Below are positions 38,102-63,929 of a stretch of DNA of 64,000 nucleotides, piece after piece. The stretch comes from Deinococcales bacterium (lineage in GTDB: Bacteria > Deinococcota > Deinococci > Deinococcales > JAAFIG01). The stretch's first letter is position 1. Every line of letters begins with the position of its first letter. The DNA lies in NCBI GenBank assembly GCA_013298595.1, contig JAAFIG010000006.1, forward strand, positions 5 through 64,004, given 5' to 3'. The notes under the pieces were generated by a model. The model saw only the letters and a list, made by a program, of their open reading frames with translations, had not been told where the DNA came from and did no database searches. The position numbers and the translations under genes were made by a program.

Positions 38102-38232
38102 GGCGAGGCAAGCCTTCTTGACCTGAAAGCAGCACCTATCTTGACCACAAACGCGCACCTGACGGGCGTGGTCGCTGTCTTGACCACAAACGCGCACCTG
38201 ACGGGCGTGGTCGCTGACGGGCTTGCCTCGCC
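38102..38232 (-). repeat. REP-like inverted repeats enclosing about 2.6 copies of a 38 bp mini-element
   Basis: GGCGAGGCAAGCC (38102) ... GGCTTGCCTCGCC (38220); identical copies at 38139-38176 and 38178-38215; partial copy at 38116-38138. Confidence 0.85.
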
Positions 38233-38490
38233 CAACTGACCAATGGTGATTTTACATTTTCAAATCGGGATGATATGAAAAGCCCATTCGTAAGAAAGTA
38301 GTTATTCTTGAATAGTTCCTGGGGTGCAATTTGTTTTGTGCTGGCACACAGATTTTTTTAGATTTTCTCGAGTTAATTCTTGTATGAACAGATGGTATTT
38401 TCGCATTTTGATTCCATCAGTTCACGTTTCAATAGTTAGAATTTTTTTGTTCTCGAGTCTCGAGTTTTTGCATTCTGCTTTAATTTTTAG

Positions 38491-38525
38491 AGTTTACGCT
38501 CAGTTTACGCTGCTCTTCGTATCAT
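38491..38525 (+). promoter_or_regulatory. SARP-type direct-repeat box plus -10 element
   Basis: AGTTTACGC-TC-AGTTTACGC-N9-TATCAT. Confidence 0.7.
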
Positions 38526-61319: not shown

Positions 61320-61358
61320 GCCGCGATTCTAACCAGTACGCAACCGAAAACACAAAAA

Positions 61359-63929
61359 TTACAGAGTAACAGCTAAGCGCCACAAACGCACTCGAGCCGC
61401 CACCCGAATAAAACCCACATCATCCGAAGTTGCTACTTGCTCGAGTTTGACTTGATGACTCGAGACACGAACCACTGCTAAACGCACTCGAGCACGAGGG
61501 TCTGCCAACATAAAATCCAGATCAAAACCAGCATCTAAACTCGAGAGTGCCACCACAGCCGCCGCTGCCACAGATTCTCTTGGATCATCAAGAAATGGAC
61601 GCAACACAGCGAACTGACCACCCAGTTTTGCCACAGCTTCAATGGCTCGAGGGAGTTGCGCCTCGGGCAGTGCCGCCAGTTGCGTCTCGAGTAACGCCGC
61701 GTTGAACTGCACGCCCTGCGCGGCAATCTCGAGCAGTTCAGCAGCCGATTTGAATGGTGGGTCGAAATTGTGTGCGGGTGAGGCACGCCTCACCGTTACG
61801 GTTGGGGATTGGGCAATCTGATTTTTTGGTAATGCAGGCGAAGCATGCTTCGCCCCTACGGTTGGGGATTGGGCAATTTGATTTTTTGGTGACAGAGGTG
61901 AGGCAAGCGACCCAAGCCCACTGGGTGCTGCTTTAGGGTCAAGAAGCCCCGTCCCTGCGGTTGGGGTTGAATTTGGATGGACAATCTCGAGAATCGCTGT
62001 TCCGTATTTCTCGAGAATGGTTTTACCCACACCTTTTATTTGCTCGAGTTGTTGCAAATTTTTTGGCATGGTCTGAGCGATGCTCTCAAGGACAGCGTTG
62101 CTGGCAACAATAAAAGCGCTCAGATTGGCAGCTCGAGCAGTTTCGCGTCGCCACGTCCAGAGTTCTTGGAGTAACGTTTCTTGGTTTGTTGTGATGGCTC
62201 GAGATTGGGTTTGGGTAACAGGTTTTTTTGGTAATTCCTGCGGCACTGGGGTTGCAGTTTTGCTGATGCTGATCACACCATTTTTCATGATTAAATCGCC
62301 TTTTTCGATCATCTCGAGCATCACATCTCGAATGATTTGGCGACCAAATTTCTTTAAAGCTCCGTGCATCGGATGACGCTGCAAACCTTTACTTTCGATG
62401 GTGCTGCTACTCGAGCCTGCCAGTAACGCTGTGACATCTCTTGGCTCGAGGCTGTGGGTTGCAAGCAGTTTGGTTAATGCCGCACGGATTTGTTCTTTTT
62501 GGGTTGGAGTGGCTTTTTTTTCAAGACTGGCAGCCACAGCTTTGACATTGAGTTCGCCAATACTTGAGTCGCAGGCATCGCAGCGTTTACATGGTGGGAT
62601 ACGCTCACCAAAATGTCCGATCAGAAAAGCTCGGCGGCAAGCTCTGGTTTGGGCGTAACCCACCACTTTTTCAAGGGCAGTATCCTCGAGTTTACGCCTG
62701 CGGTACATGCTGCTAAAATCCACAGGTTTTCTTGCATCCACAACCTGAAAAGCCCCACCCATAGCTTCTAAATTGCCATTCTCGAGCAAAAGTTTGACTG
62801 CCACATTGATCGGTGTGGTATCAAAATTCATCCGCGCCGCCACATCCGACGCACTGCCAGGAGTGTTCTCGAGATTTTTCAGAACAGCTTGGACAATGCG
62901 TTCAGGTGGATAATTTTTCTCCATGATGCTTTTACGGGTCATCAGGTCTTGCGGGGCATACAGTAAGGCTGCATGGGCAGGTTCGCCGTCTCGTCCTGCT
63001 CGCCCTGCTTCTTGGTAATAGGCTTCGATGGTGCTGGGCAAAGAGTAATGCACCACCAAACGCACATCGGGTTTATCCACACCCATACCAAAAGCAATAG
63101 TGGCACAAATACAATCAAGTTCGCCGCTTAAAAAAGCATCTTGGACTTCGGCTCGGTCTTTGTCCGACATACCAGCGTGATACGCTCTTGTACCCAGAAT
63201 ATCGGCGATTTCTTCGGTATTTTTACGGCTCAGGCAATAAACAATACAAGCCCCAGGATGCTTTGCTCGTAACGCATGCAGAGCCTCGAGTTTGGTGGCT
63301 TTGGTTGGCGCGTAGTGGCTACTAAATGTTAAGTTCTGCCGATCAAAACTCCCGACTTGTACCAATGGTTCGCGCAGCAAGACTCGAGCGATTTCTTCTC
63401 GCACTTTCGGTGTTGCCGTCGCCGTTAAAGCAAGGCGCGGCGCTGTAATACCCTCGAGTAAACTGCCTAGGCTCAGATAATCTGGGCGAAAATCATGACC
63501 CCATTGCGAAACACAATGGGCTTCATCAACCACCACCAAGCTGGCACGCTCGAGTAAACTGCGACTGGCTCGAGCGCGTTCAGGAGCGATATACACCAAT
63601 TTATAATCGCCGTTGCGAATACCAGCAAAACGTGTACTGGCTTCGGATTCGGACATGCCACTGGCTAAGTACGTCGCAGGAATACCTTTTTTGGTTAAGG
63701 CATCCACTTGGTCTTTCATCAGTGCAATCAGTGGGCTAATGACAACAGTTGTTCCCTCGAGCAAAGAAGCTGGCAATTGATACGTTAAAGATTTTCCACC
63801 ACCTGTGGGCAGCACTGTTAACGCATCACGTTTTTCCAGCACCGCTTCGATGGTCTCGAGTTGCAAAGTACGAAAAGAAGTGTGTCCAAAGCGTTTGAGG
63901 GCTGTTTGAATGGCGGTACTCGAGATCAC
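61359..63929 (-). CDS. recQ: RecQ-family helicase with HRDC domain and C-terminal HEAT-like repeats
   Basis: PTGGGKS, DEAHCVSQWGHDFRP, ATIAFGMG, YYQEAGRAGRDG, CRR...C..CD.C, HRDC. Confidence 0.93.
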   Translation of the reverse strand: MISSTAIQTALKRFGHTSFRTLQLETIEAVLEKRDALTVLPTGGGKSLTYQLPASLLEGTTVVISPLIALMKDQVDALTKKGIPATYLASGMSESEASTRFAGIRNGDYKLVYIAPERARASRSLLERASLVVVDEAHCVSQWGHDFRPDYLSLGSLLEGITAPRLALTATATPKVREEIARVLLREPLVQVGSFDRQNLTFSSHYAPTKATKLEALHALRAKHPGACIVYCLSRKNTEEIADILGTRAYHAGMSDKDRAEVQDAFLSGELDCICATIAFGMGVDKPDVRLVVHYSLPSTIEAYYQEAGRAGRDGEPAHAALLYAPQDLMTRKSIMEKNYPPERIVQAVLKNLENTPGSASDVAARMNFDTTPINVAVKLLLENGNLEAMGGAFQVVDARKPVDFSSMYRRRKLEDTALEKVVGYAQTRACRRAFLIGHFGERIPPCKRCDACDSSIGELNVKAVAASLEKKATPTQKEQIRAALTKLLATHSLEPRDVTALLAGSSSSTIESKGLQRHPMHGALKKFGRQIIRDVMLEMIEKGDLIMKNGVISISKTATPVPQELPKKPVTQTQSRAITTNQETLLQELWTWRRETARAANLSAFIVASNAVLESIAQTMPKNLQQLEQIKGVGKTILEKYGTAILEIVHPNSTPTAGTGLLDPKAAPSGLGSLASPLSPKNQIAQSPTVGAKHASPALPKNQIAQSPTVTVRRASPAHNFDPPFKSAAELLEIAAQGVQFNAALLETQLAALPEAQLPRAIEAVAKLGGQFAVLRPFLDDPRESVAAAAVVALSSLDAGFDLDFMLADPRARVRLAVVRVSSHQVKLEQVATSDDVGFIRVAARVRLWRLAVTL
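61774..61967 (-). repeat. REP-like cluster plus mini-element translated in frame within recQ
   Basis: 60 bp-period repeat TACGGTTGGGGATTGGGCAAT(C/T)TGATTTTTTGGT, palindromes such as GGCGAAGCATGCTTCGCC-CCTAC, and a mini-element at 61906-61944. Confidence 0.85.

Follow-up and report, generated by a model that had tools for sequence, protein, structure and literature searches.

We describe here the mini-element, a family of very small structured DNA repeats found at three loci of a 64,000-nucleotide stretch from a member of the Deinococcales (GenBank assembly GCA_013298595.1, contig JAAFIG010000006.1, positions 5 to 64,004 of the forward strand; this whole stretch is called the window below). 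The host belongs to an uncultured family of this order and is thus an uncultured relative of Deinococcus. We hold with considerable confidence that the mini-element is mobile and structure-dependent. Its copies are probably best explained as very small (37 to 40 nt), non-autonomous mobile DNA repeats, and a single-strand DNA step is offered tentatively for their movement. The evidence consists of a hairpin whose base pairs have been kept through two-sided changes, and of exact empty counterparts of occupied sites. Genomes, contigs and loci are cited by G, C and L numbers where they need to be told apart, G000 being the genome of the window.

Copies of the mini-element and their conserved hairpin

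The mini-element occupies three loci in the window (Table 1), and the sequences quoted for these loci in an earlier, sequence-only reading are all present there. The pattern AGCGACC..GGTCAAGA matches seven times in the window and not at all in each of 100 dinucleotide-preserving shuffles. With filters off, a covariance model searched against the entire window recovered these seven full copies, the next match having E = 0.1. Tandem Repeats Finder reported a period of 37 at 44151-44301 (4.1 copies, 100% matches) and a period of 39 at 38139-38216 (2.0 copies, 100% matches). Copies also stand in tandem in other assemblies, and the tandem expansion proposed from the sequence is confirmed in the window.

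Read on the minus strand, the first locus consists of the arm GGCGAGGCA, AGCCCGTC, two tandem copies, TAGGTGCTGCTTTCAGGTCAAGAA and the other arm. The tandem pair lies inside the GNNA tetraloop of a resident older copy that is without its first nine bases. The sequence-only reading had claimed a partial copy at this locus; a partial unit is indeed present, but it is actually the 3' half of the loop-split older copy, whose 5' remnant is found on the far side of the pair. This 3' half agrees with the 3' half of copies such as that at G000 C3:30631-30670. The host palindrome has perfect 13-bp arms, 4 nt of each being derived from the element (AGCC/GGCT), and gives the impression that one of them was copied from its partner once the insertion had taken place. 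At the third locus, the palindrome interrupted by the mini-element is of a repetitive extragenic palindromic (REP) type, REP3, and can be compared with intact REP3 copies at 61778-61795 and 61838-61855.

Table 1. Mini-element copies in the window, with the palindromes, terminator and gene that carry or adjoin them
Feature	Position	Strand	Basis or remark
Full copy, 38 nt, one of an identical tandem pair	38139..38176	-	Covariance model R1, 56.7 bits, E 1.1e-16
Second full copy, identical to 38139..38176; a single C (38177) between the pair	38178..38215	-	Pattern, Tandem Repeats Finder, covariance model
Older split copy, 3' half (loop A, GGTGC, internal loop, 3' stem, CAAGAA)	38115..38138	-	Sequence reading
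Older split copy, 5' core remnant AGCCCGTC	38216..38223	-	First nine bases AGCGACCCA missing
Host palindrome arm GGCGAGGCAAGCC, REP3-type	38102..38114	.	Sequence reading; pairs with 38220-38232
Host palindrome second arm GGCTTGCCTCGCC	38220..38232	.	Sequence reading
Four identical head-to-tail copies, 4 x 37 nt	44151..44298	+	Between the stop codon of the RCC1-repeat gene (open reading frame 41419-44136) and the terminator
Terminator-like hairpin GCCACGCC..GGCGTGGC and T run	44300..44330	+	Four-copy array at the 5' foot of the stem
Single 39-nt copy in REP3 palindrome loop	61906..61944	+	In frame, 13 codons, antisense, inside the RecQ-like open reading frame
Interrupted REP3 palindrome, 5' arm GGTGAGGCA	61897..61905	.	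Decayed 3' arm at 61946-61954
RecQ-like open reading frame, 856 aa (DEAD, Helicase_C, RecQ_Zn_bind, HRDC)	61359..63929	-	Domain search

Alignment of the 39 distinct copies from this genome identified the fixed parts of the unit: (A)GCG at the 5' end, the core GCCCG-NN-AGGTGC, a TT in the 3'-side internal loop, and CAAGA at the 3' end. As a single strand, the unit folds in two tiers. The outer tier is a variable, covarying stem of 5 to 7 bp with an internal loop of 5 to 6 nt on the 3' side, and the inner tier, the conserved stem GCCC/GG(T)GC, has a bulged T and is capped by a GNNA loop. Outside the hairpin, the ends are fixed and single-stranded, with GC on the 5' side and AAGA on the 3' side. 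Minimum-energy folding of single copies, as DNA or as RNA, gave the same two-tier hairpin.

The outer stem occurs in this genome as GACCCT/AGGGTC, GACCAC/GTGGTC, GACCAT/ATGGTC and GATTCT/AGAATC, and one subfamily pairs GCGAGTA with TACGAGC, a tandem G.A pair included. Stems with GATCC, GCCCC, GGCCC, GCATC, GCCGC and GCTTGT were found in other assemblies, and 145 distinct copies display 34 outer-stem types. For the 39 copies of this genome, 87.7% of cells were paired, versus 28-40% when the partners were slid by 1-3 columns, and the covariation score was reached by none of 500 shuffles. Pair 10-24, which closes the inner helix, is represented by five pair types (AU 11, UG 11, UA 8, CG 2, GC 2, other 5). 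For a second set, 108 distinct copies were drawn from other assemblies with a core-fixing pattern and aligned by fitting to the model, so that only the outer stem of this set is informative. In this set 87.5% of cells were paired, covariation was 0.266 versus 0.088 after shuffling (reached by 0 of 500 shuffles), and pair 5-84 was AU in 62 copies, CG in 39, GC in 5, UA in 1 and other in 1. Pairs have been kept through two-sided changes in both sets, far above the shuffled and slid controls, which upholds the earlier proposal that the secondary structure is under selection. Folding-energy z-scores were modest (-0.25 to -2.07), and the structural claim therefore rests on covariation and not on stability.

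Known structured units were also considered. A CRISPR (clustered regularly interspaced short palindromic repeats) array was rejected as there are no spacers, an integron attC site as the unit is too short and without the R-box consensus, and domain V of a group II intron as AGC lies outside the helix and there is no reverse transcriptase (RT). Small self-cleaving ribozymes were rejected on the lack of an Rfam match: Rfam gave no match in the window at the gathering score, the best sub-threshold match having 22.8 bits versus a cut-off of 50.

The assembly of the window comprises 4.58 Mb in 68 contigs, with 45% G+C, and is 94% complete. A profile search followed by covariance model R1 placed about 80-90 copies in it, with at least 92 matches at E <= 1; this count is a lower bound, as the best 150 of 1572 first-look candidates were scored. 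Among 40 relatives searched, element matches were present in all 18 genomes of the same family, numbering 1 in G002, 17 in G013, and at least 49 to at least 157 in the other 16, again lower bounds with the best 150 candidates scored per genome. The expectation that a covariance model would find further copies in this and related genomes was thus borne out, with many found and all 18 family relatives positive. In the four other families of the order, 2 of 22 genomes gave one weak match each, and in a further sample of 150 genomes of the phylum a single match was obtained in 4 (by family 3/82, 1/12, 0/48 and 0/8). The two lone copies that were read look genuine, having the usual ends and a compensated stem.

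Lone well-formed copies lie at L176:300-345 and L177:290-345, in two Deinococcus-like genomes otherwise without the element. The position of the lone copy is syntenic in G161 and G104, where it follows two paired genes, one for a molybdopterin oxidoreductase and the other for a ferric-reductase-like membrane protein; the neighbors of the lone copies in three Deinococcus-like genomes are housekeeping genes. When one genome per prokaryotic species was scanned with the exact pattern, at least 121 stretches matched. Among the 80 matches listed, 78 were from a "Deinococcales bacterium" or "Deinococcota bacterium," and the remaining two (Polyangiaceae, Streptomyces) look like chance. No match was obtained in a plasmid collection or among viral contigs. 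No RNA run was listed as containing the region, and the contigs of five sequencing runs of DNA or unknown type break at the repeats and bridge none of the arrays.

Empty sites, junctions and preferred targets

The mobility proposed in the sequence-only reading, and its suggestion that empty and filled sites be compared, found backing in exact empty sites without duplication, both orthologous and paralogous: at loci 2 and 3 (the second and third loci of the window), at L063 and L059, in a 175-bp repeat and in a transposase gene. Locus 2 is exactly empty in G001, a genome of the same genus, in which the gene end and the terminator are joined as CTCGA|GCC (the bar marking the join), that is, as in the window minus the 148-nt array. 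The REP3 palindrome of locus 3, by the end of the HRDC domain, is uninterrupted in the orthologues of G003 and G001. An orthologous site of locus 1 was sought in relatives and none was found. Another assembly (L063) has the element in a REP1 palindrome that is empty in this genome, and L059 carries, relative to this genome, a 39-nt net insertion in sequence that aligns as coding. Twenty further copies were compared with G003 and G001; both flanks lie on one contig of this genome for 9, and in the 7 of these that were aligned the spacers were too diverged for clean junctions.

In G003, locus 2 has a single unit beside the same terminator hairpin, and 37/37 of its bases are identical to those of the window unit. 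A copy of another subfamily is nested in this unit at the 5' foot of its inner hairpin. In the comparison of L159:2515-2590 (G003 C72) with window positions 44151-44187, the unit is identical, the neighboring coding DNA is 84% identical and the terminator differs; the gene upstream is different from that in the window. This identity suggests reinsertion at a hot spot, conversion from other copies, or constraint.

Paralogous sites also exist. Copies of one subfamily are found nested at a single exact position in copies of another subfamily, of which unoccupied versions stand on other contigs, along with one remnant that has recombined. A miniature-transposon-like repeat of about 175 bp, with inverted ends TAAGTACCTCC...GAGATACTTA, is present in 10 copies in this genome; all 10 paralogues contain one mini-element, a second is present in 5 and absent in 5, and a third is present in 2. 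These paralogues are L023:1-117 (G000 C1:235616-235732) and nine others; three of the 10 carry a further 12-bp insert, and the repeat also occurs in G004 and in sequencing run X5. In an IS200-type transposase gene of G006 (L225:130-540, C401), the frame is split by one copy that leaves stop codons in frame. About 150 nt upstream, still in this frame and next to N-terminal coding sequence, stands a portion of a second copy.

Unambiguous pairs of sites (L063, the nested copy of G003, and REP3 hosts) define the inserted piece as GCG...CAAGA plus one base. The base that precedes GCG is derived from the host: T in REP3 hosts with an "AT" loop, G in REP2 hosts, and A elsewhere. The AT loop is found in 46 of 80 REP3 matches, counted on both strands. 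At five base-resolved sites the join falls between A and G, and there is no target-site duplication. An A stands at position -1 in 89 of 101 non-self copies, and a G at +1 in the resolved sites.

The mini-element lands preferentially at the foot of a stem, typically on the 3' side of a hairpin loop, in its own tetraloop, at the 5' foot of a terminator or of the inner hairpin of another copy, or directly behind a resident copy. The hairpin targeting that the sequence-only reading had envisaged is borne out by copies in the loops of REPs, in the tetraloop of the element itself and at a terminator foot. Of 95 distinct non-self contexts, 14-15 contain, in the 40 nt preceding the element, the exact complement of a 6-nt arm that starts 2-3 nt after CAAGA, versus 1-5 of 95 at control offsets of 9-18 nt; this excess places the element at the 3' side of hairpin loops. 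Flank-to-flank stems were found in this genome for 10 of 40 copies, versus a permuted mean of 2.8 and maximum of 7. Copies in tandem with or nested in another copy make up 54 of the 115 examined in other assemblies (24 in the GNNA loop of another copy, 28 in tandem and 2 at the 5' foot of an inner hairpin). The corresponding numbers among 48 copies of this genome are 0, 6 and 2. These nested and tandem arrangements are explained by the element's own tetraloop and own ends being its favorite targets.

Possible routes of movement

If the copies are moved via single-strand DNA, the agent would be a structure-guided single-strand DNA nuclease/transferase that acts in trans and cuts and rejoins ends and targets. 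The boundaries of the element are A|GCG, followed by its own stem, on the 5' side, and CAAGAN|G, usually followed by a host stem, on the 3' side. Because both ends resemble the targets (A|G next to a stem), one structure-guided activity would suffice for donor and target. The hairpin would be the handle of the enzyme, and this role would account for the stem pairing that is retained in propagating copies. Head-to-tail arrays and the one-base "circular permutation" seen at the junctions would also be explained by an intermediate of rolling-circle or circular single-strand type. The copies in addition ride passively inside REPs and the miniature transposon, which multiply themselves. The chemistry may be akin to that known from HUH enzymes, either those of IS200/IS605 or those of rolling-circle elements, and we offer a single-strand DNA step of HUH-like type as a tentative possibility. 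More speculative, and in our opinion rather unlikely, is a one-hairpin transposon, in which a folded strand of 37 nt would carry both ends and home to A|G at hairpin feet, its own included, with a structure-guided single-strand transferase outside the known transposase families, possibly a housekeeping enzyme, as its mover and with the same pathway moving the small dispersed repeats (SDRs) of cyanobacteria.

Enzyme families were searched across 41 related genomes (18 relatives of the same family, 22 genomes of other families and this genome). Y1_Tnp, the Y1 HUH family, was found in 15 of the 18 and 3 of the 22 genomes. The DEDD family of IS110 was found in 9 of the 18 and 3 of the 22, with none in this genome or G007, and XisH in 14 of the 18 and 1 of the 22, being missing from G009, G010 and G012, which have 79 to over 150 copies. 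A GIY-YIG search of this genome returned UvrC only. Multi-copy open reading frames are nearly absent from its assembly: an all-against-all comparison of 4669 open reading frames gave 10 paralogue pairs, and none of 6 scanned was a transposase.

Several results weigh against the explanation by single-strand DNA. The sequence-only reading had proposed looking for a linked HUH, IS110 or RT enzyme, and none that tracks the element was found among the searched genomes. The Y1 genes that were read, the single gene of this genome and that of G004, belong to ordinary IS200/IS605 elements with different hairpins of their own; no mini-element copy lies within 1.5 kb of the Y1 loci of the five family genomes examined; and no Y1 gene was found in G010, which is 91% complete and has at least 112 copies. 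Y2_Tnp was found in 0 of 41 genomes, a result without weight, as the control search was also silent. Most copies end in A on the 3' side, others in C, G or T, and the empty locus 2 of G005, followed by the same hairpin, has three extra bases (AGA) at the site; since the junctions vary by one base and G005 has these additional bases, the chemistry is not clean. In other assemblies, flank-to-flank stems (9 of 61, versus a permuted mean of 4.4 and maximum of 10) are not above the control. Orientation relative to GC skew or neighboring genes is unbiased in 34 loci and gives no sign of a coupling to replication. Mismatches in stems were G.T versus A.C in 21 versus 7 cases in this genome and 12 versus 15 in other assemblies, and these counts, taken together, favor neither strand as the one that folds or is active. 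Finally, many identical copies ride in larger repeats, and independent insertions are therefore far fewer than copies.

Three other explanations were considered. The first is spread through RNA, in which a transcript would fold and be reverse-transcribed and the cDNA joined into single-stranded or nicked DNA; a route of this kind is said to have been proposed by Elhai and colleagues in 2008 for the cyanobacterial SDRs. A loop of the GNNA type, the frequent G.U at pair 10-24 (UG in 11 of 39 copies of this genome), stable RNA folds of -12 to -13 kcal/mol and an older copy that has lost its 5' end (38216-38223) would all fit such a process. RVT_1, however, was not found in this 94% complete genome; the family genomes that have it number 5 of 18, and G007, with its 126 or more copies, is not one of them. 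Moreover, orientation is unbiased relative to neighboring genes, and G.T is not above A.C in the larger data set. We regard this route as improbable.

Slightly less probable still is that the unit is only a passenger, a module of composite repeats (REPs, the 175-bp miniature transposon and others) that spreads with them or by recombination or gene conversion, in the manner of the mosaic small noncoding repeats (SNRs) of Deinococcus radiodurans or the BOX modules of pneumococci. Passenger spread accounts for much of the copy number. Of the 10 top-scoring copies fetched from G007, 8 are identical and lie in one composite context of about 50 bp, and 2 more share a REP3 context. Among the copies fetched from G004, 3 fully seen and a fourth cut by a contig end lie in the miniature-transposon context, and 3 in another composite, so that two groups of 3 each have their own common context. 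The copies fixed within the 175-bp repeat of this genome number 10, and a remnant at G000 C29:33961-34009 is a product of recombination between two nested cores. What this explanation does not accommodate is the presence or absence of the unit alone at unique sites, one of them following a stop codon, another within coding sequence and a third within a transposase gene, as well as at one precise position of otherwise identical host repeats. Nesting in a 4-nt loop (24 of 115 copies), if derived from tandem arrays, would need two precise deletions.

A selected functional motif (a protein binding site, an RNA stabilizer or a terminator module) kept for the benefit of the host and not selfish is very improbable: the conserved single-stranded parts (bulged T, GNNA, internal-loop TT and AAGA tail), the identity of the 37-nt unit of locus 2 here and in G003 beside a gene only 84% identical, and the lone copies at a syntenic place in two Deinococcus-like genomes would fit it, but copies are randomly oriented with respect to genes, some occur in coding regions with one gene disrupted, nesting destroys the hairpin of the host copy, presence varies between species of one genus, and no Rfam family matches.

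Related repeat systems, host genes and genome style

In behavior the mini-element, a new family, belongs with the very small mobile repeats of cyanobacteria, which serve as an analogy only. Full-text literature searches found no description of this element. SDR1 to SDR8 of Nostoc punctiforme and relatives were reportedly described by Elhai and colleagues in 2008 as repeats of 21-27 nt with a hairpin kept by compensatory changes. Judged by the description of the SDRs, both kinds of repeat are shorter than 100 nt, dispersed and lineage-restricted, and have a hairpin with compensatory changes. Both also occur inside other repeats, minitransposons and their own copies, which for the mini-element is demonstrated here. 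The mini-element differs in its length of 37-40 nt versus 21-27 nt, in its two-tier hairpin with a bulged T and a GNNA loop, and in its hosts, which are Deinococcales and not cyanobacteria. It targets hairpin feet (A|G) and its own tetraloop, whereas SDRs, compared by description only, target HIP1 (highly iterated palindrome 1) or heptamer arrays. A passage in PMC5861425 gives the SDRs as confined to Nostocaceae.

A second comparison is with REPs and their REP-associated tyrosine transposases (RAYTs), together REPtrons, which are GTAG/CGTC-tagged palindromes in the sections concerned of Di Nocera et al. 2013 (PMC3733652). As presented in those sections, REPs resemble the mini-element in being short, imperfect, high-copy palindromes that sometimes lie in frame in genes or within other palindromes, and they are thought to move as single strands by means of an HUH tyrosine enzyme, a thought that may extend to the mini-element. 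The mini-element, by contrast, starts with (A)GCG and ends with CAAGA; it has no GTAG/CGTC head and, at the loci examined, no Y1 gene flanked by copies. True GTAG-headed REPs of this genome are its hosts.

The mini-element shares with IS200/IS605 elements the lack of a target duplication, a bulged-T hairpin and a putative association with single-stranded DNA. The ends of IS608/ISDra2-type members contain a short bulged-T hairpin, and a 5' sequence there pairs with a 3' sequence near the cut. The layout of the mini-element, with a guide-like 5' strand, a bulged-T hairpin, a linker, a complementary strand and a cut site a few nucleotides further along, is reminiscent of the IS608 right end as generally known. 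Unlike IS200/IS605 elements, which have separate left and right ends and a guide of 3-4 nt, the mini-element is one nested hairpin with a Watson-Crick outer stem of 5-7 bp, and its target is recognizable as A|G only. The hairpins of the resident tnpA elements are unlike GCCC-GNNA-GGTGC. Miniature inverted-repeat transposable elements differ in that the ends of the mini-element, GCG and CAAGA, are not inverted repeats and no target is duplicated.

Rickettsia palindromic elements are about 100 nt long or more and occur in other phyla; judged by description, their greater length and these other phyla set them apart. They and the intragenic REPs, as treated in part of PMC3733652, are like the mini-element in inserting in frame so that genes stay open, as is the case here for the RecQ-like gene and L059. 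The mosaic SNRs of D. radiodurans are described in a portion of PMC1978522 as present in one species and not in a close relative. On that account they resemble the mini-element in belonging to the same order and in being small, noncoding, mosaic-built and patchy among species. They are probably not this element, which was found in 3 of 82 genomes of that family with no more than one copy in any of them, D. radiodurans perhaps not being among these genomes; here too the SNRs are compared by description.

How DNA that is too small to encode anything, and has neither inverted ends nor duplications, can move has been an open question since the cyanobacterial description of 2008. The mini-element provides an unusually rich data set for this question, as its copies number in the hundreds to thousands across no fewer than 19 species-level genomes, with a sharply delimited two-tier hairpin, many compensatory variants, junctions defined to within one base, and a target rule of A|G at the foot of a stem combined with strong self-homing. 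Its consequences include 13 additional residues in a RecQ-like protein, a broken transposase gene, tandem arrays at gene ends, and short-read assemblies that break. Its weakness as a model is that the hosts are uncultured.

The linker that follows the HRDC domain of the RecQ-like protein is encoded by three REP3-bearing units of about 60 bp and the mini-element. The C-terminal region of about 140 aa has no Pfam match and is conserved and syntenic in G001, G003, G006 and G007, all of the same genus. In G003, the frame looks open through the REP linker when read by eye. Three genes near the first two loci are unusual for the order: 34999-37845 encodes a 948-aa NB-ARC/NACHT-TPR protein, 38324-40981 an 885-aa protein with Tectonin repeats and a thiol-activated-cytolysin-like domain, and 41419-44136 a 905-aa RCC1-repeat protein. 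In G003, no counterpart of the cytolysin-like gene was found in the roughly 600 bases behind the NB-ARC gene. A tandem repeat at 26367-26458 (23-bp unit, 4.0 copies, 95% matches) is unrelated to the mini-element.

The hexamer CTCGAG is hyper-abundant, with 54,422 matches on both strands, or about 27,200 sites in 4.58 Mb. This corresponds to one per about 170 bp, whereas base composition predicts roughly 900 sites in all. Examples in the window are 38367-38372, 44144-44149, 44378-44383, 61987-61992, 62010-62015 and 62043-62048. CTCGAG is a HIP1-like highly iterated palindrome in a Deinococcales lineage; the cyanobacterial HIP1 octamer itself occurs only 4 times in this genome. XisH is typical of cyanobacteria, and homologues are present in 3-11 copies in most genomes of this family. 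XisH, the iterated palindrome and an SDR-like repeat together give the lineage a cyanobacterium-like genome style.

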